64,000 bases of DNA from a virus. Its lineage: Duplodnaviria > Heunggongvirae > Uroviricota > Caudoviricetes. The translations under genes and the position numbers were made by a program. Shown here one piece after another: positions 226 through 45,391 of the stretch; within the stretch, counting starts at the first letter, position 1; every line of letters begins with the position of its first letter. The DNA lies in IMG/VR virus record IMGVR_UViG_3300023707_000001; one strand, given 5' to 3'. Under the pieces are notes generated by a model. It saw nothing but the letters and a program-made list of their open reading frames with translations, was not told the DNA's origin and did no database searches.

Positions 226-543
226 TCAACAACACTCCTCTTCTGCCATTTTCTGCGCCGCGATTCTTTTATCCTGCTCATCCAACAAACGGATATAGCC
301 GATGATATCTTCTTTGTGGCTAGGAATATAGTCTTTCTCGAATCGGCTATCGGTAGCCAATCCTAAGCAGCTTTTATTCTCATCGCAGAAATCGCGGTAA
401 AGGTTTTCAACGACGTAATCTTCCGGCGCCGAAATATACCGGCCATTATCGTTATAGTACAGCCATTTTCCTGTTTTGGTATAACGGCCTTCTATACCGT
501 CATGGCCATACCATTTATGTGTAAATATCCTTTCTGTTTCCAT
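226..543 (-). CDS. hypothetical protein (105 aa)
   Basis: Minus-strand ORF in a tightly packed co-directional gene string; no recognisable motifs. Confidence 0.4.
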   Translation of the reverse strand: METERIFTHKWYGHDGIEGRYTKTGKWLYYNDNGRYISAPEDYVVENLYRDFCDENKSCLGLATDSRFEKDYIPSHKEDIIGYIRLLDEQDKRIAAQKMAEEECC

Positions 544-557
544 AAATGTAGTTTACC

Positions 558-947
558 TCATTTACATTCAGGATACATTGTATAGATGATATGGTCTTTT
601 GTAAACCGGAACCATCCTTCCTCATCTACACTAACGAAAATCTGGCGTCTATCTTTCATACGGAAGTTTCTGAACTCATGCAAGTCTTTTATCTCTACGA
701 TGGTATCGTCGTTCAATACCGCTTTACCAACAGGGGCAATATACTTTGCATCCGGAGTAATTTCCGCCAAAGCAAAATAATTGTTATTTTCATTCCGCAC
801 CATCATGCCATTGCGTTTGGGCCAAATTGCATACCATTTTCCGTTTTCGTGTTTAACCGCCTTCGTGGGCATATCCTGATAATCACAAATATCATCATGG
901 GTGGGTTTTGCAAAGCTATTGATATATTCTTTTGTCATCGTAAACAC
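558..947 (-). CDS. hypothetical protein (129 aa)
   Basis: Minus-strand ORF contiguous with neighbours; the overlapping plus-strand ORF 591..1205 is judged an antisense shadow. Confidence 0.4.
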   Translation of the reverse strand: MFTMTKEYINSFAKPTHDDICDYQDMPTKAVKHENGKWYAIWPKRNGMMVRNENNNYFALAEITPDAKYIAPVGKAVLNDDTIVEIKDLHEFRNFRMKDRRQIFVSVDEEGWFRFTKDHIIYTMYPECK

Positions 948-950
948 AAT

Positions 951-1244
951 TTAGTCCTCCGCTACGTCTTTAATGTAATCCAAGGGAATAGCCGTGAAAT
1001 CGACATGAAAATTCTCGAACTGCGCGACGGCCATGATATAATCGTCTGTATCCTCTTCAAAGTCTGCCACATGGGTAGTGCTCGAATTTTTGTCGAAAGT
1101 GTATTCGTGGTCTTTGCTGGCCTCTTTTACCATTTTGACCAGTTGCTTTTTGATATCGTATTCGTCGCCAAATTTACGATATATATGCGTGCCATATTCT
1201 ACTGAATTATGCGCGCTGATAATCCAAGTTCTTATTGTAGCCAT
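951..1244 (-). CDS. hypothetical protein (97 aa)
   Basis: Minus ORF, 4-nt gap to upstream gene. Confidence 0.4.
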   Translation of the reverse strand: MATIRTWIISAHNSVEYGTHIYRKFGDEYDIKKQLVKMVKEASKDHEYTFDKNSSTTHVADFEEDTDDYIMAVAQFENFHVDFTAIPLDYIKDVAED

Positions 1245-1246
1245 GA

Positions 1247-1510
1247 TTATTTCCCCTGCGGATAGAAAATTTCGCCGATAATATTGCAGGAAGTAATTTC
1301 GAGCACTACTTCGCCGTTGGGCGAATAGATGCCGCCCGCTGCCAGCTCTTCCATATCATCTTCATCGTTGGCCAGAACTTCGGAGTCACCGATGCTCTTG
1401 GCATAATCCTTTGCCTTTTCAATGAATGCTCTTTCAGCGTCCTTACGATGGAAATACACATCGTAGCTGTTTTCATTGCGGCCATATTCGATTAACAAAT
1501 ATCCATTCAT
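1247..1510 (-). CDS. hypothetical protein (87 aa)
   Basis: Minus ORF in operon-like packing. Confidence 0.35.
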   Translation of the reverse strand: MNGYLLIEYGRNENSYDVYFHRKDAERAFIEKAKDYAKSIGDSEVLANDEDDMEELAAGGIYSPNGEVVLEITSCNIIGEIFYPQGK

Positions 1511-2498: not shown

Positions 2499-2578
2499 GG
2501 GTCATTCCTCCACTTCTTTCACTTGTAAGAGACAGCGGCCTTCGTAGTCATCCCACATATGTTTATCCGTCGCCATTT

Positions 2579-2893
2579 TCAATCCCTCCTGTTCCATCGT
2601 GCTGTTGCCTGCTCTATCGTTTGCCCAAAAACCGACGCGCCACATGATGCACACGCAATAATAACGTGACCTGAATATAAATCATCTAGGCTTATTGCGG
2701 TTTGGATATATGCTTCTCCACCACAGGTACATGGAAGTAACCCATTTTCTGCCATCTGACCTGATATTCTTTTGCCGCAAAACGGACAAAACTCAAAACC
2801 CTCATCGCTCTCGTTCATTACGATGGCCATCGTTTTCTTACAAGCTGGACACGTATAATGATGTCCGTCGACAATCCATTTATTCTTTGCCAT
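2579..2893 (-). CDS. Lar-family restriction-alleviation-like Cys-rich protein
   Basis: Two CxxC pairs and a C-terminal ...TIEQATARWNRR motif resembling Lar family proteins. Confidence 0.45.
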   Translation of the reverse strand: MAKNKWIVDGHHYTCPACKKTMAIVMNESDEGFEFCPFCGKRISGQMAENGLLPCTCGGEAYIQTAISLDDLYSGHVIIACASCGASVFGQTIEQATARWNRRD

Positions 2894-4610: not shown

Positions 4611-5102
4611 TTAGGCAACTTTCGTTTTCATCGAAAGCGCCTTTTTTAAGATGTTGATTGCCGCGTTTCGGTCACGGTCGAGGGATTCTCCGCAGTGCGG
4701 GCAAACCCAGTCTCGAACGCTTAAATCTTTGACGATTGGATTCTGAAATCCGCAGACATGGCATGTTTGGCTGGACGGATAGAACGTTGGAATTTTTACC
4801 AATTTCCCGCCACGCTCTTTGGTTTTATAGTCCAGTTTTTCGAAGAACATTCCCCATGCAACGTCACTTATTGCCTTAGCTAATTTTTTATTCTTTACCA
4901 TGCCCTTGACGTTTAATTTTTCAACGGCAACGAGGGAATTTTCATTAACCAAGTGATAAGATAATTTGTGCTGAAAATCATTCCTCGTGTTTGTAATTTT
5001 TTCGTGAACACGAGCAACTCGTACACGTTGTTTTTTCCATTGACCAGAACCTAACTTGGCCTTTCGCTGTTTACTGTGGGTAAGGGCTTGAAGCCCACCC
5101 AA
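4611..5102 (-). pseudogene. tnpB: TnpB (IS200/IS605 OrfB) C-terminal fragment, N-terminally truncated
   Basis: Matches the TnpB C-terminal half: RuvC-II, a Zn finger (CHVCG...CPHCG) and RuvC-III (DRDRNAAINIL). There is no Met start (TTG) and an in-frame stop lies immediately upstream at the ISL3 junction. Confidence 0.65.
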
Positions 5103-6400
5103 AAATCTTATAGAATTATATCCATGAGATTATAAGACAGAAAGGCGTTATCTTACTTATCATGAATACAACTGACTTATTTGCGGCAGCTTTGAACCTG
5201 CCGGAACCTTGGTCTATATCCAAGGTGGAGTTCAAGCCGGACTCATCCGGAACTATGGAACTTCATATAGAGCTCTCCTTTCCCAGAGGCAGTAAGTTTG
5301 CTTGCCCCGAATGCGAAGCTGAAACTACTGCCTACGACACGACGCCTAGAACCTGGCGCCACCTTAATTTCTTTCAATACAAGACCTATATCCATGCTGA
5401 CCTACCACGGATTAAGTGCGGCGAACATGGTGTAAAAACCGTCAGCGTCCCTTGGGCTAGAGAAGGTTCTGGTTTTACCCTACTCTTCGAAGGCTGGGTT
5501 GTGGAGCTGGCTAAGCACCTGCCTGTCGCCACTATTGCCAATATGGTAGATGAGCATGACACCCGCCTCTGGCGGTTCATCAAGCATTATGTCGATGAGG
5601 CCCGCGCCCGTGAAGATTACTCCGAAGTCAATGCTATCGGCATCGACGAGACCAGCAAGAAAGGTCACAAGTATGTCACCGTAGTTGTTGACTTGGCCCA
5701 ACGCAAGGTTATCTTTGTTACTAACGGCAAAGATTCTGCCACCGTAGATCGGTTCGTAAAAGACTTCAAGGAACATAAAGGCATTCCGGGCAATATCAAA
5801 ATCGTCACCTGCGATATGTCCTTGGGCTTCAAGAAAGGCATTAACGAGCACTTCGTCAACAGCAGCACTGTCATCGATAAATTCCATGTCATCAAGCATA
5901 TCAATGAAGCTCTGGACGAGGTTCGCCGCGATGAAGTCAGGCAAGGTCCTTGGTATAAGCACCTGCTTAACAAGAGCAAATGGCTCTGGCTCAAGAATGA
6001 TGCGAATCTCACCGATAAACAGCTTGAGCGCAAGGAGTCGCTAATGCACAAGCGCCTGAAAACGGCTAGAGCCTACGCTATGCGCGTTACCCTGCAGGAT
6101 ATTTACGAGACATCTTTTAACCGCACCACCGCTGAAGAGCGTCTTAACCAGCTGTACAATTGGCTCACACGTTCGCGACTTACCCCCATGAAAAACTTTG
6201 CTAAACTGCTAAAAAATCACTGACAGGAAATACTCAATTACTTTGACTATCGCTACACCAACGCTATTTTGGAAGGCATGAATAGCATTATCCAGAATAT
6301 AAAGCGCCGTGCCCGCGGATTCCGTAACGATGAGTATTTCAAGACTATGATTTATCTGGGCTGCGGAAAATTGAATTTAGATATATAAGGGAGAGACTTG
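5103..6400 (+). mobile_element. ISL3-family insertion sequence (boundaries approximate)
   Basis: Contains an ISL3-type transposase. It truncates the tnpB remnant on the left and separates two copies of a duplicated phage gene cassette. Inverted repeats could not be defined by eye. Confidence 0.4.
5162..6223 (+). CDS. ISL3-family transposase, interrupted by an in-frame TGA (homology continues to 6390)
   Basis: N-terminal Zn-finger (CPEC...C..H) and a DDE_Tnp_ISL3-like body. After the TGA at 6221-6223 the same frame encodes QEILNYFDYRYTNAILEGMNSIIQNIKRRARGFRNDEYFKTMIYL, the conserved ISL3 C-terminus. Confidence 0.8.
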   Translation: MNTTDLFAAALNLPEPWSISKVEFKPDSSGTMELHIELSFPRGSKFACPECEAETTAYDTTPRTWRHLNFFQYKTYIHADLPRIKCGEHGVKTVSVPWAREGSGFTLLFEGWVVELAKHLPVATIANMVDEHDTRLWRFIKHYVDEARAREDYSEVNAIGIDETSKKGHKYVTVVVDLAQRKVIFVTNGKDSATVDRFVKDFKEHKGIPGNIKIVTCDMSLGFKKGINEHFVNSSTVIDKFHVIKHINEALDEVRRDEVRQGPWYKHLLNKSKWLWLKNDANLTDKQLERKESLMHKRLKTARAYAMRVTLQDIYETSFNRTTAEERLNQLYNWLTRSRLTPMKNFAKLLKNH

Positions 6401-31535: not shown

Positions 31536-32417
31536 TTACTTCAAGAAGTCGGCTCCAAGGATGAAACCGCCGTTCTGACCGCTAATCTGAGGGAGCTTTC
31601 CGTCCCACTTAGAGATTGCATTCTGCTGGAGTACGCCGGGCGTCAAAGACTGTTGCAACTTGGCGTTAGCCTGTGCCTGGCCTTCCGCTTCAATCAATGC
31701 AGCATCAGCTTTACCCTTTGCTGCCACACGGGCCTTTTCAGCTTCAACTTCGGCCTGCTGTTTTTCAATCTTGGCCTGCTGGAGTGCATTCTGGGCATTT
31801 ACAACGTTCTGGATTGCCGTTGCCGTAGCCTCATCTGGCACCACGTCAGACAGATTGAAAGTCTCAATTACAATACCGCAATCTTCAAGGTCAGCCTTGA
31901 ACGTTTCGTAAATCTTCTGGTTGATTTCAGGACGCTTATCGCCTACCAGTTCCATCAAAGAATACTGGGAGGTGATATTATTGAGCGCTTCGTACATGGC
32001 ATTCTTCATGTACCCTGATTCAATCGATTTAATGTCCTGGCCGCGGAACTTAGCAAAAACGGTCGGAAGCTTCTCCGGATCCATATGGTAAGCATACGTT
32101 ACCGAAACGTTGACCTGTTTGCCATCCCGTGTGTTTACATTGACGGACTTATCGGTTTTCTTGTCCTTATCGTCGCCATCTACAGAATTTTTCGTGTAGT
32201 ACACGGTTTCCGTGGATATCGGATATTCGCTCACGTGTTTCCACGGTGCTACCATATGGAAACCCTGACCGAGCGTTTCGCTTTCAATGCCGCCATCCAT
32301 GTTATAGATGACTCCTGCATAGCCCGGACCGATGCGTGTTACGCAAAGAAACGCAATCACCGCAAACAGTGCCATGGCGCCTAAGATTCCTACCAAACCA
32401 AGACCTTTGTTTTCCAA
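31536..32417 (-). CDS. SPFH/band-7 (prohibitin/HflC-like) membrane protein
   Basis: N-terminal TM helix then an SPFH-like body with a coiled-coil tail; AGGAGG RBS 8 nt upstream. Confidence 0.65.
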   Translation of the reverse strand: MENKGLGLVGILGAMALFAVIAFLCVTRIGPGYAGVIYNMDGGIESETLGQGFHMVAPWKHVSEYPISTETVYYTKNSVDGDDKDKKTDKSVNVNTRDGKQVNVSVTYAYHMDPEKLPTVFAKFRGQDIKSIESGYMKNAMYEALNNITSQYSLMELVGDKRPEINQKIYETFKADLEDCGIVIETFNLSDVVPDEATATAIQNVVNAQNALQQAKIEKQQAEVEAEKARVAAKGKADAALIEAEGQAQANAKLQQSLTPGVLQQNAISKWDGKLPQISGQNGGFILGADFLK

Positions 32418-32445
32418 AATATAATTCCTCCTCTTTCCCGGCTTT

Positions 32446-32571
32446 TTAGCCGAACAACTTTTTTAGGGTATCCTTAATCTCACGTCCTACTTCATTGGCA
32501 TAATGAATTCCGAAGAATACAAACAAGCCAATAAAAGCAACTGTAAGACAAAGAATCATTGCTCTCATCAT
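32446..32571 (-). CDS. small single-TM protein (41 aa) upstream of the SPFH gene
   Basis: Not in the ORF track: MMRAMILCLTVAFIGLFVFFGIHYANEVGREIKDTLKKLFG with a GGGGGAG RBS; co-oriented with and adjacent to the SPFH gene. Confidence 0.45.
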   Translation of the reverse strand: MMRAMILCLTVAFIGLFVFFGIHYANEVGREIKDTLKKLFG

Positions 32572-32588
32572 TGTGAAAACTCCCCCTT

Positions 32589-32681
32589 ATATAATTACTG
32601 GCGGACAGGGCACGATTCGAACGCGCGCGCCGCATCACTGCGACCTAGTGAGGTTCAAGCTCACCCTCTTCAACCACTTGA
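32589..32681 (-). tRNA. tRNA-Ser(TGA), type II
   Basis: Reverse complement folds as GGACAGG/CCTGTCC acceptor, anticodon loop CTTGAAC, long variable arm, T-loop TTCGAAT and encoded CCA. Confidence 0.75.
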
Positions 32682-33066
32682 GTACCTGTCCATGATAAAT
32701 GCGGCAATGAGTATTCAGACGGTTCCCCTACACTGACGGGACCTTTCGGGCGTTTATTTATTGTCTCCGCCCGAAGAAGATACCTGCAGCCGCATGTAGC
32801 AGGCATATTTATAGTGTTTGCGCACTTGGAGCTGTTGGAATTGCACAGACTTCGCATCCGGAATTGAAGCCTGTACGCACCAACACTTATTACCACCAGG
32901 ACGCCCGTCGGCGTGTCGGGAATCGAAACCCGCTCTTACTGTCCAATGTAGGAACTCCTTATAAAGGGAAACCCTGGACTCGAACCAGGCTGACCACCAC
33001 GGACCCCGCAGGGCGTCGGGAATCGAACCCGAATGCTCTTTTCCGCCACCTGACGTTTCCCATAAT

Positions 33067-33143
33067 ATGGTGCCCCTCCAGAGATTCGAACTCTGACTGT
33101 ACCGGGCTTAAACCGGTTGCCTCTGCCAATTGGGCTAGAAGGG
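33067..33143 (-). tRNA. tRNA with anticodon TAA (Leu-decoding) but short variable arm (atypical type I)
   Basis: Acceptor GCCCTTC/GAGGGGC, anticodon arm ACCGG-TTTAAGC-CCGGT, T-arm CAGAG-TTCGAAT-CTCTG, CCA encoded. Confidence 0.5.
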
Positions 33144-33149
33144 CATAAT

Positions 33150-33236
33150 ATGGTGCGCCTAGCAAGACTTGAACTTGCACGGTATCACTACCAGGAGATT
33201 TTGAATCTCCCATGTCTGCCAATTCCATCATAGGCG
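33150..33236 (-). tRNA. tRNA-Leu(CAA), type II
   Basis: Acceptor GCGCCTA/TAGGCGC, anticodon arm GGAGA-TTCAAAA-TCTCC, variable hairpin GGTA-GTGA-TACC, CCA encoded. Confidence 0.75.
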
Positions 33237-33242
33237 CATAAT

Positions 33243-33319
33243 ATGGTGTGATTGGTGCGATTTGAACGCACGACCTGCCGCTTAGGAGGCGGCTGCTCTA
33301 TCCAACTGAGCTACAACCA
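33243..33319 (-). tRNA. tRNA-Arg(CCT)
   Basis: Acceptor GTGGTTG/CAATCAC, D-arm GCTCAGTTGGATAGAGC, anticodon loop CTCCTAA, T-loop TTCAAAT, CCA. Confidence 0.75.
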
Positions 33320-33325
33320 CATGAT

Positions 33326-33388
33326 ATGGAGGCTTGGGCCGGGATCGAACCGGCGTGAAACGGTTTTGCAGACCGTTGCCTAACCACT
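33326..33388 (-). tRNA. tRNA-Cys(GCA), 3' portion only (gene interrupted by the IscB element)
   Basis: AAGTGGTTAGGC-AACGGT-CTGCAAA-ACCGT...GCCGG-TTCGATC-CCGGC-CCAAGCC-T-CCA closely matches bacterial tRNA-Cys from the D-loop onward. The 5' acceptor strand GGCTTGG is missing locally and is found 1.6 kb away at 34994-35003. Confidence 0.55.
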
Positions 33389-33390
33389 TA

Positions 33391-33437
33391 AAACGCGGCG
33401 CGGGGGACTCCACCCTCTACAGAGTGGAGGTGAGCGC
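33391..33437 (-). terminator. nested GC-rich hairpin at iscB 3' end (terminator or IS right-end structure)
   Basis: gcggcgc-ggggga-ctccac-cctctacaga-gtggag-gtga-gcgccgc: a 7-bp outer and 6-bp inner stem. Confidence 0.35.
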
Positions 33438-34685
33438 CGCTTCTCTCCTTTCGACTAAATACGAATTATTATGCATCAAAAATGTTATTTTTGATGGTGC
33501 TACTTCAGCCTTAGTTCCGTCTAGGTGCTTTAAGACAAAAGAACCTTTGACTCTCATACCTCTCACAAACCAGCATTGCTTTTGATAAAACACTGTGTCA
33601 TTTAAGCAGAACCCCCGAACAATATGTCCGGCTTGTGCTCGCTTACGAACGCCGCCTTTTGCTGGCACTTCGCGATGCAACTTACGGTTATGCCGACGAA
33701 TTTGTTTACGAAGATATTCGTAGTTGAGCCGTTCTGCATTGATATTGCCCGCAATACAGTAGGCGTCTGCCGAATGTGTTTTTGTAATACCATTTTTGAT
33801 GCGAGTGTTTTTCGTGATGTAGCCGTATGTTAAATGCACATCAGGATATTGCTCTTTAAGCTTGTTGTAAAAAGCCCAACGCATAATTCCCATGAAAGTC
33901 GCGTCTCGGAATCTCATGCCACGATGTATTGTCTTCGGTAAAGAGATATTGCCTTGATGATATCCCTGATGGCAGGTTTCACAAAGCGTTATCAGGTTAT
34001 TCGGCGCATTGCCTCCAGTCATACGACTTTCAATATGATGTACATTGAGTATTGGGTCGCCAGAACTCCCTTTACAGCACTGACATTGATGACCATCACG
34101 GAATAATACGTATTCACGAACATTCGCCCATCCAAACTGTTCTCCCTGCTGATATTCGACCCCAGAAATATCAGGATTCTTGATTTTCTGAATATCGAAT
34201 TGAGCTACTTCTACAATAACTTTCGTTACCGGAAGAATCTTATGGATATCCGCCACAAGCTTTAGATGAACATTGATTTTGTTCTCCACGCTTGGCGCAA
34301 GCCAACCTTTGTGTTTACGGCGAACCCGATTCAAAAATCTTACTTTGCGATACCGTGTCTTGCGGTTCCGGCGACTGTGACGAAGTTCTAACCGTTTAGC
34401 CAAAAGCCTTACAATAGATGCTTTGCCATCACCAGAGCGCATAATCGTTTCTGAAGCATATAATTCTTGTTTCTCTGTTGATGCTGAGGCTCCGATATGT
34501 ACAGAGCCAGCATCAATACCAAGAGTTATTGGCTGTTTATAGCCAGCTGAGCCATATTTCAACTTAATTGTAAACGGCTCATATTTTACAACCATAGCTT
34601 TGTTTTCCCTCAGCAGCTTTCTAGCTTTCTGAGGTTTACAAGGCATTAACGGTTGTCCGTTTTTATTGATAACGTACACGAACAT
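33417..34685 (-). CDS. iscB: IscB (OMEGA RNA-guided nuclease, Cas9 ancestor)
   Basis: 422 aa with N-terminal PLMP domain (VINKNGQPLMPC), RuvC-I (LGIDAGS), Arg-rich bridge helix, HNH (CQCC...NVHHIESR...N..LCETCH) and RuvC-III. AGGAGG RBS 8 nt upstream. Confidence 0.85.
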   Translation of the reverse strand: MFVYVINKNGQPLMPCKPQKARKLLRENKAMVVKYEPFTIKLKYGSAGYKQPITLGIDAGSVHIGASASTEKQELYASETIMRSGDGKASIVRLLAKRLELRHSRRNRKTRYRKVRFLNRVRRKHKGWLAPSVENKINVHLKLVADIHKILPVTKVIVEVAQFDIQKIKNPDISGVEYQQGEQFGWANVREYVLFRDGHQCQCCKGSSGDPILNVHHIESRMTGGNAPNNLITLCETCHQGYHQGNISLPKTIHRGMRFRDATFMGIMRWAFYNKLKEQYPDVHLTYGYITKNTRIKNGITKTHSADAYCIAGNINAERLNYEYLRKQIRRHNRKLHREVPAKGGVRKRAQAGHIVRGFCLNDTVFYQKQCWFVRGMRVKGSFVLKHLDGTKAEVAPSKITFLMHNNSYLVERREAALTSTL

Positions 34686-34993
34686 AACGTGTACCTCCTT
34701 TCCGAAGCTGAAGCTTCAAATTAGAGTAAATCTACCCTTCGCCAATGTTGTAATCGCTTGCCCGCAATGGCGGGCCGTCCTTAGGTTGACCGTTCCTCCT
34801 CTCAGAACTTTTACAGAGCCTACACAGAGCGGGGAGCTAGGATAAACACCCACGGGTGTGATAACGAAAACAACGTAGTCCGAGGCTTTTTCAAGCACTT
34901 GTCTAATACCGGACTTAGGCTAGTCGGTAAGAGCTTGCTTTCGCAAGCTCCCGCCTTCAAGCGCAAAGCGCTAGACGGGGGTTATTGACTAGA
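34686..34993 (-). ncRNA. IscB omegaRNA (HEARO-like), 5' guide expected at the tRNA-Cys junction
   Basis: About 300 nt directly upstream of iscB, ORF-free and hairpin-dense (GGGAGCTTGC-GAAA-GCAAGCTC, ACACCCGTGGGTGT, GCCCGC-CATT-GCGGGC), running up to the tRNA 5' fragment. Confidence 0.6.
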
Positions 34994-35003
34994 CTACCAA
35001 GCC
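34994..35003 (-). tRNA. tRNA-Cys(GCA) 5' fragment (GGCTTGGTAG)
   Basis: Exact complement of the 3' acceptor strand CCAAGCC at 33329-33335; it sits directly after the array spacer CATAATAAGG. Confidence 0.4.
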
Positions 35004-35011
35004 ATAATAAG

Positions 35012-35160
35012 GGGCAGTGGCGGGAATCGAACCCGCAACCAGCATCACCTATAAACTGTTTGCAACCAGTGTTATAGGCATGTTCTGTTTTATATCGGCG
35101 CAACCATTTCGTTAAGAGTCCTGTTTGCAACCAGAAAACTTAATATAGCCGACACTGCCA
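35012..35160 (-). tRNA. tRNA-like gene with ~70-nt internal duplication (probable pseudogene)
   Basis: Acceptor GGCAGTG/CACTGCC and T-arm GCGGG-TTCGATT-CCCGC are 149 nt apart; the anticodon-like module CTGGTTGCAAACAG occurs twice. Confidence 0.3.
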
Positions 35161-35169
35161 TGATAATAT

Positions 35170-35245
35170 TGGTCGGGATGACAGAATTCGAACCTGCGGC
35201 CTCCTGCTCCCAAAGCAGGCGCTGCCACCACTGAGCTACACGCGG
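35170..35245 (-). tRNA. tRNA-Pro(TGG)-like, acceptor stem not complementary (possible pseudogene)
   Basis: D-arm TAGCTCAGTGGTGGCAGC, anticodon arm CCTGC-TTTGGGA-GCAGG, T-loop TTCGAAT and CCA are present, but 5' CCGCGTG does not pair with 3' CATCCCG. Confidence 0.4.
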
Positions 35246-35579
35246 ATGATAGATATCCGGTTCGCAGGGAGCTCGACTAAGCGGTTGCCCTTTGTAGATA
35301 TCTTCACTATGCATCTTATCCTCTCTTCGCCGCATCGAGTCGGGAGCTACACCTAACTCTTTGGATAATACGCATAAAAATATTCAACTCGATGTACATA
35401 ATAAAGTCCGGAAGGTGTCCCGGTCTTGCCCCGGCTACTCACTTTTGTTTTGAGCTTTTGCCGGTGCCGATATATGGCCATATGACTTGTCCGTATCTTT
35501 ATCATACGGGAAAAGCCGACGCCAATATACCAGCGTTCTTTTCCTTCATCGTCAGACGTTAGCCTGATTTTGAAGATGA

Positions 35580-35662
35580 TGGCAGGGGTAACTGGACTCG
35601 AACCAGTGTAAGTAAATCGGAGCTTCAAAGGCTCCCGCCTTAACCAACTTGGCTATACCCCT
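35580..35662 (-). tRNA. tRNA-Gln(TTG) with unusually long (11 nt) variable region
   Basis: Acceptor AGGGGTA/TACCCCT, D-arm GCC-AAGTTGGTTAA-GGC, anticodon arm GGAGC-CTTTGAA-GCTCC, T-arm ACTGG-TTCGAGT-CCAGT, CCA. Confidence 0.6.
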
Positions 35663-35667
35663 AAGAT

Positions 35668-35724
35668 GAGGGACGGCAGGGTTCGAACCTGCGACGCATT
35701 GCGCCCGCCTCTCAACGACCCCTC
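35668..35724 (-). ncRNA. ~57-nt anticodon-arm-less tRNA-like element (mini-tRNA)
   Basis: Acceptor-like stem plus intact T-arm GCAGG-TTCGAAC-CCTGC, with only about 23 nt between them. Confidence 0.3.
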
Positions 35725-35963
35725 ATAAGTGGAAGGCTGTATTCCTTTCGTGCACAGCACACCGAAGCACTACCCAGAATGTTATACTGTCTGAGCGCAG
35801 TTGTTTCTTGAACAATAGCTAAAAAGGCTTTCGCCCGTACAACTCTCAATCTTTATTAAGAGCTCTACGGGCGCCTGAACCGAAGTTCAGAGCGCTCGCT
35901 ATTTTGTTTGTTTCTTAGAAAAAGGAGAGGAACTTACAAGGCTTTCGCCTTGCTTATTCCATA

Positions 35964-35995
35964 TGGTGGACCCCCTCGGACTTGAACCGAGGACC
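35964..35995 (-). tRNA. tRNA 3' remnant (T-arm + acceptor 3' strand + CCA) abutting the HNH endonuclease gene
   Basis: CTCGG-TTCAAGT-CCGAG-GGGGTCC-A-CCA; no matching 5' half. The HNH gene's stop codon is 19 nt away. Confidence 0.4.
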
Positions 35996-36013
35996 CGCGT
36001 CCACTGATTTTGT

Positions 36014-36643
36014 TTATGCGCCATACTTTTCGTACGACTTTATCCATTTTGCTATGGCCTTACCAGAAACGCCATAGCGCCGTCCCATCTCAGATTTGTT
36101 GCGACCAACTTCTTCATACTCTTTGAAGAATTCTTCTTTCGTTGGACGCACCGTCTTTCTTGCCCAGGGACGTATATTTCCTAAGACCGCTTCATCGACA
36201 TCATAATGGTTACAGAATTTTTCTTTTTCCATCGCTTTTTTTGCAACTTTTTCTTCTGCTATACGAACTCTTTCTTTTAGTGGAACAATCCATTTTTCGT
36301 ATTCATTAAGTTTGTGCTGTCCTTTAGCATGTTCTTCGGCATGGCAGTTAGCGCAAAGAAGAACACATTTGTCTAATTCCTTTTTTAAGCGATGCCAGCC
36401 GAGATTGTATTTTTGTCCAATGCCAAAATTCTTTTGCTGGGGGTCGAGATGATGGAATACCAATGCATTTTCGCATTTATCGTATCCGCATACCTGACAT
36501 TTCCTGCCTTTGTACTTAACAGCTCTTTGTTTCAAAAGCTTTTTTCTATAGTTTTGTCTGCAAGTGTTACAAATGTCTTTTGAGTGTCCTTTACTGCGGC
36601 CATATTCATATTCATTGCCACAAACTTTACATACATATTTCAA
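36014..36643 (-). CDS. HNH homing endonuclease with C-terminal HTH
   Basis: HNH core VFHHLDP...N...LLCANCH with a flanking Zn-ribbon CKVCG...CNTC; C-terminal GRRYGVSGKAIAKWIKS helix-turn-helix. Confidence 0.7.
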   Translation of the reverse strand: MKYVCKVCGNEYEYGRSKGHSKDICNTCRQNYRKKLLKQRAVKYKGRKCQVCGYDKCENALVFHHLDPQQKNFGIGQKYNLGWHRLKKELDKCVLLCANCHAEEHAKGQHKLNEYEKWIVPLKERVRIAEEKVAKKAMEKEKFCNHYDVDEAVLGNIRPWARKTVRPTKEEFFKEYEEVGRNKSEMGRRYGVSGKAIAKWIKSYEKYGA

Positions 36644-36725
36644 TTCATATCACCGTAGGCAACATTACCTATTGTGTGAACTTAAAACATGATGTTAGTT
36701 CAAAAAGTGCTCACAAATTAATTAA

Positions 36726-36804
36726 TGGTCCAGGCGGTGGGACTTGAACCCACGTAAGACACGGCTTATAAGGCCGCCGCTACCACCAACTTAGCTACGC
36801 CTGG
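36726..36804 (-). tRNA. tRNA-Ile(TAT) (AUA decoder)
   Basis: Acceptor CCAGGCG/CGCCTGG, D-arm GCTA-AGTTGGTGG-TAGC, anticodon arm GCGGC-CTTATAA-GCCGT, T-arm GTGGG-TTCAAGT-CCCAC, CCA. Confidence 0.55.
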
Positions 36805-36810
36805 GTAAGG

Positions 36811-36850
36811 TGGACCCCTCAGGGCTTCTAACCAACTGAGCTAGGGGTCC
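36811..36850 (-). ncRNA. ~40-nt tRNA-like hairpin (acceptor stem + D-arm only)
   Basis: GGACCCC-TA-GCTCAGTTGGTTAGAAGC-CCTGA-GGGGTCC-A-CCA. Confidence 0.3.
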
Positions 36851-37113
36851 TTAATCGAGACGACATGGCATTTTGCCGTCTCTAGTGAGTTTTTTTGCTA
36901 ACGTCGGGAGTTCGCCTACTCCCTCGATACACCTATCGCGGTATTCTGCGCTTGACATCTATAACGGCCAGTCAAGTCTCCGGCAGGTTATGGTTTTCTG
37001 CATACCATTTCCGCACCTGGTTGCCTTGCAGGCTCTCATTTACCCTTTGTTTCAGTTAGATAATTGCGCACTCATCATTGCCTATTCCTCAGGGTAAACT
37101 AAAACGGATTCCT

Positions 37114-45316: not shown

Positions 45317-45391
45317 AGCCAATGCCAGGACTCGAACCTGGGTCGCCGAGGTTACAGTTTCGGTGCTCTCTCCCTATTGAGCTACATCGGC
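45317..45391 (-). tRNA. tRNA with 18-nt anticodon arm (8-nt loop; anticodon TGT or GTA ambiguous)
   Basis: Acceptor GCCGATG/CATTGGC, D-arm GCTC-AATAGGGA-GAGC, anticodon arm CCGA-AACTGTAACC-TCGG, T-arm CCAGG-TTCGAGT-CCTGG; no CCA encoded. Confidence 0.45.

Follow-up and report, generated by a model that had tools for sequence, protein, structure and literature searches.

A probable IS200/IS605-type IscB–omegaRNA element splits a tRNA-Cys(GCA) gene in a very large phage

The DNA analysed here (64,000 nucleotides (nt) of IMG/VR virus record IMGVR_UViG_3300023707_000001, hereafter the window) comes from a virus of the Caudoviricetes and carries, on its minus strand, a tRNA-Cys(GCA) gene that is cut in its D-loop by a 1602-bp insert at 34989..33388. 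We consider it likely that this insert is a non-autonomous element of the IS200/IS605 type (ISC), carrying an iscB gene and an omegaRNA, which has inserted without target duplication in the D-loop of the tRNA-Cys(GCA) of a phage of about 340 kb. This judgement applies to the explanation as a whole, from the anatomy, which was read directly, to the transposition, guide supply, cutting and retention or spread of the element, which we infer. IscB–omegaRNA elements are the ancestors of Cas9 and, to our knowledge, demonstrations of their natural role in transposon retention and homing are confined to bacteria and plasmids.

The two parts of the tRNA gene flank the insert. The 5' fragment, GGCTTGGTAGTCTA (35003..34990, minus strand), comprises the acceptor 5' strand, positions 8–9, the 5' strand of the D-stem and the first D-loop base. 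The 3' fragment, GTGGTTAGGC...CCAAGCCTCCA (33387..33327, minus strand), runs from the D-loop GTGGTT to the CCA end and by itself gives an Rfam tRNA match, at 33338..33399, that falls below threshold; its first bases, GTGG(T), occupy the position of the target-adjacent motif (TAM). When joined, the fragments make a 75-nt tRNA-Cys(GCA) that is called cleanly by ARAGORN; its acceptor stem has 7 bp and its arms are normal. Deletion of the insert in silico restores the tRNA exactly as it is in insertion-free (empty) alleles, and there is no target-site duplication.

These empty alleles were retrieved with a degenerate junction pattern, which returned uninterrupted tRNA-Cys genes from one IMG/VR contig (L001, a 211-kb viral genome) and three JGI metagenome contigs (L053, L054 and L056). 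The four intact genes differ from the reconstructed gene by 2–3 nt, and the contigs that carry them are 74–98% identical to the window in nucleotide sequence, piecewise, have the tmRNA in common with it and carry a tRNA array related to its own; in L056 the intact tRNA-Cys is followed by tRNA-Arg(CCT), as it is downstream in the window. Because the pieces join to a tRNA so close to intact orthologues, they represent one split gene and not two partial genes or a chance arrangement. An earlier note, made by a model from the letters of the window, had proposed that a single tRNA-Cys is split and had pointed to related phages as the place to look for an uninterrupted copy at the same array position; on both counts it is upheld. 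Its coordinates were right to within a few bases, but it named only the first 10 nt of the 5' piece (35003..34994) and set the other limit at 33326, one base past the CCA. Insertion of the element has probably inactivated the phage tRNA-Cys. There is no second tRNA-Cys among the tRNAs of the window, and we infer that the phage has lost its tRNA-Cys. Megablast of 32500..36900 found no match among GenBank phages, and an exact 46-mer from the 3' part of the tRNA-Cys found none in an IMG/VR search; on these results the window itself is missing from both collections.

On the minus strand the element begins, directly 3' of GGCTTGGTAGTCTA, with GTCAATAACC..., which corresponds to position 1 of the HEARO RNA model, and it ends in ...GCGCCGCGTTTTAA, after which the tRNA resumes as GTGGTTAGGCAACGGTCTGCAAAACCGT...CCAAGCCTCCA and continues to 33327. 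As AG stands at both junctions, the limits of the insert could shift by as much as 2 nt; those at 34989..33388 (GTCAAT...GTTTTAA, minus strand) are favoured because the GTCAAT start is conserved in relatives. The TAM-proximal end (33388..33440, minus strand), the LE of Meers et al. (10.1101/2023.03.14.532601), contains an imperfect hairpin, GCGGCGC...GCGCCGC, around the stop codon, followed by GTTTTAA; the DNA fold of this hairpin has an energy of −15.5 kcal/mol (z = −2.95). Both transposon ends, the LE hairpin end and the 5' GTCAAT, are conserved in relatives. As in elements of the IS200/IS605 type, insertion is scarless, there is a subterminal hairpin, and one end adjoins a target motif that is conserved. 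The only other ORFs (open reading frames) within 1 kb are ones that overlap tRNAs, and the element is taken to be non-autonomous because no Y1 TnpA was found in the window by the searches given below; the earlier note, too, had seen no tnpA.

The iscB ORF (34685..33417, minus strand) encodes a protein of 422 residues that was assigned from Pfam, from solved IscB structures and from lineage motifs. Its N-terminal PLMP and bridge helix region matches Pfam RRXRR (PF14239, E = 5.4e-61, residues 3–181), with PLMP at residue 12 and the Arg-rich bridge helix stretch RHSRRNRKTRYRK, and its HNH domain matches PF01844 (E = 7e-07). The solved IscB structures are matched by sequence, at 2.7e-41 by phmmer and at 4.6e-55 by profile. 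The RuvC motifs, at D58 (GIDAG), E159 (IVEVA) and H304/D307 (HSADAYC), align to GIDPG, VLELN and DHYLDAYC of solved IscBs, and the HNH residues H216/H217 and N229/N230 are accompanied by the zinc cysteines C201/C204 and C235/C238. Across the 27 members of the lineage the PLMP motif, D58, E159 and D307 are invariant (27/27), H304 is kept in at least 90%, and H216, H217, N230, C201, C203, C204, C235 and C238 are invariant. The top PDB matches of an AlphaFold model of the protein, of moderate quality (pLDDT 63.7), are IscB–omegaRNA–DNA complexes (8csz_D, Foldseek E = 4e-25, TM 0.54). At the C-terminus, where the IscB fold has a TAM-interacting domain, the model includes a beta-rich domain at residues 356–417, with block-mean pLDDT of about 66–83; the sequence alignments end near residue 340. 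The pairwise ratio of non-synonymous to synonymous substitution rates (dN/dS) between this IscB and seven relatives, where dS is unsaturated, is 0.03–0.07, a comparison that cannot isolate the terminal branch. These values indicate that the intact IscB is under purifying selection. The protein has all the hallmark domains that the earlier note had assigned to it, and the catalytic residues, mutation of which the note would have counted against its proposal, are intact; nuclease activity is predicted.

The omegaRNA scaffold (34989..34686, minus strand) is situated at the transposon end called RE by Meers et al., and the ribosome-binding site of IscB lies at its 3' end. The Rfam HEARO model (RF02033) matches it in full length (34989..34726, model positions 1–211), upstream of the iscB start at 34685 and on the same strand, and scores 83.7 bits where the gathering score is 83, so that the roughly 300 nt suspected earlier of being an omegaRNA are recognised as one by a covariance model. 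In an alignment of 12 lineage members, compensatory changes occur in 26 of the 70 consensus pairs, 69 of which are retained in the window copy, and by this measure the omegaRNA is structurally conserved. The predicted guide, ATGGCTTGGTAGTCTA (35005..34990, minus strand), lies directly 5' of HEARO position 1, its length of 16 nt being assumed from characterised IscBs. It consists of 2 nt of inter-tRNA spacer and nt 1–14 of the tRNA, which agrees with the earlier proposal that the guide derives from the tRNA 5' flank, and it occurs once in the window. All four empty alleles contain the identical sequence, followed there by GTGGTTAGG; in the filled allele GTCAATAAC follows it instead. The 24-mer target is missing from representatives of 185,579 bacterial species, so the natural targets are expected to be phage alleles. 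A scan of bacterial genome contigs revealed neither the filled nor the empty junction, and the 5' half of the tRNA-Cys is shared with no representative bacterial genome; the target therefore offers no clue to the host and no sign that a host tRNA gene is targeted.

Comparison with related elements places the insertion in context. Both junctions were read for 11 independent insertions, in relatives at 75–100% IscB protein identity. Every one of the 11 has a GTCAA-like element start and is oriented with the neighbouring phage genes. The 3' flank in these insertions is A/G-T-G-G, the T and G being present in 11/11, with ATGGA as the consensus. As background, and as no part of the evidence here, HEARO elements insert beside ATGA or GTGA. 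In several relatives (L041/L062, which share the DnaB site, L066 and probably L009 and L108) the ATG of the flank is the apparent start codon of the next phage gene, which puts the element between a ribosome-binding site and a start codon. In L041, L066, L108 and other relatives the element sits exactly between the ribosome-binding site and the ATG of a phage gene, and in L066 the iscB stop codon directly adjoins the downstream ATG; this suggests that in such insertions the downstream gene may be translationally coupled to iscB.

The copies nearest to that of the window occupy a variety of sites. The closest IscB relatives (P0002, P0003 and P0009, 87–90% identical) are located elsewhere than in a tRNA-Cys, and among them there is no evidence for occupation of the same site in other phage backgrounds. 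A copy whose IscB is 84% identical, on a 187-kb contig (L061), lies within a phage tRNA array between tRNA-Arg(CCT) and tRNA-Ser(TGA) and interrupts neither. Since the other copies sit at other sites and L061 breaks no tRNA, the lineage is not tRNA-specific; the flanks indicate that, for the window copy, GTGG in the D-loop of the tRNA served as the insertion motif. In L061 the 15 nt before the omegaRNA (TCTACGGGTCACCAC) exactly repeat the 3' end of the upstream tRNA-Arg, with AATTT between the repeats (515..529, 494..508). L017 has tandem HEARO RNAs, a solo omegaRNA (807..1041) preceding an omegaRNA–iscB unit (1252..1460), and the left flanks of L062 and L106 hold remnants of older omegaRNA or insertion-sequence ends beside the current elements. 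The arrangements in L017, L062 and L106 suggest that the same sites have been entered, or their elements replaced, more than once.

The genome that carries the element is that of a very large phage. The window contains a tmRNA, at least 14 tRNAs, an NAD-dependent ligase, Tpt1 and 73 matches to PHROG families, a tail fibre family among them, and its tRNA array and iscB are co-oriented on the minus strand. The exact IscB was found on 15 contigs, from at least 6 samples, the longest of 339,914 bp, and six sequenced contexts of it are 99.99–100% identical to the window. More than 100 IscB protein clusters are related to it at 65–90% identity, many on contigs of 50–340 kb, and bacterial and archaeal relatives, among 185,579 species representatives, are at most 64% identical and come mostly from rumen and gut Clostridia. 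On these comparisons the lineage appears to be restricted to large phage contigs. IscB-like proteins also make up PHROG families 119 and 2214, annotated as HNH endonuclease, so that IscB in phages is not new in itself.

A second iscB (P0021, on L036/L037), encoding a protein of 84% amino-acid identity, is present in the same samples as that of the window, and the longest contigs with either gene are equal in length. Its IscB–omegaRNA element lies between the NUDIX/NrtR gene and the isochorismatase gene of an NAD-salvage cluster and probably belongs to the same genome of about 340 kb. Three Logan contigs end 18 nt upstream of iscB, which is most simply put down to a break in the assembly graph caused by near-identical sequence in common with the second iscB copy, and not to biology.

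A framework for the behaviour of the element is provided by the work of Meers et al. on bacterial IscB elements (10.1101/2023.03.14.532601). There, the omegaRNA scaffold lies at one transposon end and the guide outside the element, the omegaRNA depends on transcription that enters from outside, and co-orientation of the elements with the gene upstream is commoner than expected. Cutting by the nuclease, next to the TAM, at the scarless donor joint or at a homologous site that is empty, forces recombination to restore the element. The TAM of GstIscB, TTCAT as written 5' of LE, reads ATGAA on the iscB strand, so the flank motif of the present lineage is of a known type; cleavage by GstIscB is lost upon single TAM changes. 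Cutting of the alleles of co-infecting phages has been termed 'non-restorative homing' and, for phages, discussed only in theory (review PMC13565253).

By analogy, a Y1 TnpA supplied in trans would have pasted the element beside an RTGG motif, here the GTGG of the D-loop. The omegaRNA, putatively lacking a promoter of its own, would be produced by read-through of the co-directional tRNA-array transcript, so that its guide would consist of the last 2 nt of the spacer and nt 1–14 of the tRNA; processing of the upstream tRNA-like unit may set its 5' end. IscB and omegaRNA would then recognise ATGGCTTGGTAGTCTA followed by GTGGTT and, because GTCAAT follows the guide match in the filled allele, the target would exist only in insertion-free alleles. 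The complex would cut an empty tRNA-Cys, whether at an excised donor joint, in an excised sister copy or in the genome of a co-infecting related phage, and repair of the cut allele from the filled copy would keep or spread the element. Cutting of insertion-free tRNA-Cys alleles, which the earlier note had also foreseen, would fit the four natural empty alleles, in which the guide is matched exactly and the flank is identical.

Several observations weigh against this explanation. At 34927 and 34926 (minus strand), within the 3' strand of helix P1 of the omegaRNA, CC in the window copy replaces the TT of 11 relatives, giving two A·C mismatches in a helix that reads G-C, U-A, C-G, A·C, A·C, U-A, A-U, A-U. 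The relatives have six contiguous pairs here, with compensatory changes in L041, L061, L062 and L070, and the change, which adjoins the guide, is unique to the window copy. The HEARO score barely reaches the gathering threshold, as a result of these mismatches and of a 34-nt hairpin extension in the omegaRNA. Positions 1 and 5 of the flank of the window copy, GTGGT, do not follow the consensus ATGGA; the only other GTGG flank is that of L008, the closest omegaRNA relative, which shares the hairpin extension. Pairing is also possible between CTA, with which the guide ends, and a conserved GACTAG in the scaffold, and it could occlude the seed. Y1 TnpA (PF01797) is absent among the families listed, the best 25 of 42, for 150 ORFs of the window, and tblastn of the window with a short TnpA fragment of phage c-st gave no TnpA match, a search that a weak or remote TnpA could escape. 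Finally, the site is filled in all 15 contigs that carry the exact IscB, with no polymorphism within the population. Neither a donor joint, as would be left by excision, nor a conversion tract was seen. The claim of cutting in particular is weakened by the P1 mismatches, the GTGGT flank and the fixation in all sampled contigs.

Given the state of P1, the flank, the pairing of CTA, the want of polymorphism, donor joint or conversion tract, and the caveats on the source of TnpA, there is a real, if minor, chance that the element is a stranded fossil, decaying within the tRNA-Cys with a cleavage-dead omegaRNA and an ORF that merely persists, the tRNA having been lost. The double mismatch in P1 confined to the window copy, the HEARO score at threshold, the non-consensus flank, the fixed insertion across the sampled contigs and the lack of a tnpA in the window would all be accounted for in this way. 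Against decay stand a full-length ORF retaining every catalytic motif, the retention of 69 of 70 other omegaRNA pairs, the conservation of both transposon ends and the low pairwise dN/dS, though this last does not isolate the terminal branch. We keep the explanation given above as the likely one.

A less probable alternative keeps the same molecular mechanism but makes the phage the beneficiary: the element would be kept because cutting the tRNA-Cys of co-infecting phages excludes competitors, as an RNA-guided analogue of T4 SegB or of a jumbo-phage intron endonuclease. The perfect target in four related phage lineages, with none in bacterial genomes, the seeming confinement of the lineage to large phage contigs and the free-standing HNH endonuclease gene in the same tRNA array (see below) agree with such a role, the concept of which is discussed in the review PMC13565253. 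It leaves the cost of losing tRNA-Cys unexplained, however, and the other copies of the lineage lie at unrelated sites, as would be expected of a plain selfish insertion sequence. It is very improbable that the insert is intron-like and leaves the RNA by splicing, so that the phage would still have a working tRNA-Cys, in the manner of IStrons and of group I introns within tRNA genes. The idea stems from analogy with IStrons and bacterial tRNA introns; Rfam detects no intron family in 32400..36000, even at E ≤ 1, and identification as a group I intron or IStron was rejected since no self-splicing intron RNA lies at the element ends under the same search. Moreover, the insertion is in the D-loop rather than in the anticodon loop, the ends resemble those of IS200/IS605 elements, and relatives are found between protein genes. 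That two unrelated partial tRNA-like fragments flank the iscB gene by chance is refuted, to a degree that leaves it almost no probability, by their exact join into a 75-nt tRNA-Cys 2–3 nt from orthologues at the same array position.

The surroundings of the element contain further features of interest. Between tRNA-Pro(TGG) and the tRNA-Cys 5' piece there is a 156-nt tRNA-like cassette (35011..35166, minus strand). Its acceptor stem has 7 bp (GGCAGTG/CACTGCC) and its T-arm is normal; it lacks a CCA, its D region is expanded and its anticodon-like arm is long. CTGGTTGCAAACAG is present in it twice, forming 8-nt loops, GTTGCAAA. The cassette is called neither by ARAGORN nor by the Rfam tRNA model and is missing in L001, L054 and L056, where tRNA-Pro adjoins tRNA-Cys. 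ARAGORN calls a tRNA-Ser(TGA) and a 97-nt tRNA-Ser(CGA), with two T-arm-like hairpins, at 32599..32691 and 32965..33061 (minus strand), and these calls have no Rfam tRNA match even at E ≤ 1. The intervening DNA (32691..32965) holds further T-arm-like hairpins, and similar double-T-arm units occur in L001, which also has a suppressor-type tRNA(TTA) at 2575..2667. A tRNA to which ARAGORN assigns the anticodon '???' (45317..45391, minus strand) scores 51 bits with the Rfam tRNA model, and the phage tmRNA (40033..40433, minus strand) encodes the tag peptide DEVEYRLAA.

Within the tRNA array, between tRNA-Ile and tRNA-Gln, lies a free-standing HNH endonuclease gene (36014..36643, minus strand; phrog_2255, 7e-29), which by its family match is a putative second, protein-only selfish nuclease of the array. 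Elsewhere in the window an ISL3-family transposase ORF (5162..6223, plus strand; Pfam 2.5e-49) lies next to what is left of a TnpB gene, a C-terminal fragment (4611..5102, minus strand) that is 42% identical to the TnpB of phage c-st (phrog_506, 7e-62; tblastn match 4650..5009). The region 4611..6223 looks like one insertion sequence that has landed in another, inside the phage.

Overall, we conclude that this is an element of a known type at an unreported place, and that it involves no new mechanism. Full-text literature searches turned up neither an IscB nor a TnpB element reported from within a tRNA gene of a phage. The earlier suggestion that an RNA-guided nuclease homing into a phage tRNA array and disrupting a tRNA had not been described is upheld to that extent, but IscB-like genes as such are common in phages, as PHROG families 119 and 2214 attest. 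The locus leaves thinking on how IscB works unchanged; its value lies in the allele pair and in the phage-borne lineage. One filled allele and four empty ones, with a perfect guide match and the same flank, constitute a natural filled/empty allele pair in phages, with which RNA-guided homing or exclusion between co-infecting phages is testable. A large IscB lineage, moreover, lives in big phage genomes, where its elements are co-oriented with transcription and typically lie right at start codons; hence the transcript that yields the guide can come from a tRNA array, at the cost of one phage tRNA. It is possible, and we put it forward tentatively, that this phage-restricted lineage acts as an RNA-guided gene drive or a competition weapon among co-infecting large phages, with the tRNA array, strongly transcribed and processed, supplying the guide and the intact tRNA-Cys of sister phages as the target, so that these phages would be converted or excluded. 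If so, OMEGA 'non-restorative homing' between viral genomes would here have its first natural pair of filled and empty alleles.

Comparison with known systems clarifies what is shared and what is distinctive. The match to the Rfam HEARO RNA is full length and in the expected place and strand, although its score is only just over threshold. IStrons (PMC4227781, 10.1101/2023.11.20.567912) resemble the window element in being OMEGA-type transposons within a gene; they combine a group I intron with IS605/TnpB and splice from RNA, leaving the host gene functional, whereas the window element has no intron. SegB of T4 (PMC2330249, cited in the review PMC13565253), a free-standing homing endonuclease, is a selfish nuclease in a phage tRNA cluster that targets a tRNA gene of related phages, and for SegB and the window element alike a bias in inheritance is expected in co-infection. 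SegB reads DNA by protein contacts and leaves its tRNA uninterrupted, whereas the window element would be guided by RNA and appears to destroy its tRNA. The IscB elements of Geobacillus stearothermophilus (10.1101/2023.03.14.532601) are alike in their scarless ends, RE scaffold and outside guide and, by analogy, in dependence on read-through and in co-orientation with the upstream gene; the GstIscB TAM on the iscB strand, ATGAA, is close to the ATGG/ATGA flanks of the present lineage. Geobacillus has a cognate TnpA in its genome and its retention homing was shown experimentally, whereas the window element is on a phage replicon and no TnpA was found in the window. OgeuIscB–omegaRNA and the other characterised OMEGA IscBs (7XHT, 7UTN and 8CSZ) have the same order of PLMP, split RuvC, Arg-rich bridge helix and HNH, provide the best matches in sequence and fold, and have a HEARO-type upstream omegaRNA with a 5' guide, as does the window element. 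OgeuIscB is larger (about 495 residues against 422), with some 24% identity in structural alignment and with the C-terminal 80 or so residues of the window protein unaligned by sequence, and its TAM, given as NWRRNA in PMC12660989, differs from the RTGG-like flank of the window lineage. What sets the window copy apart from the characterised OMEGA IscBs is its location in a phage genome, inside a tRNA gene.

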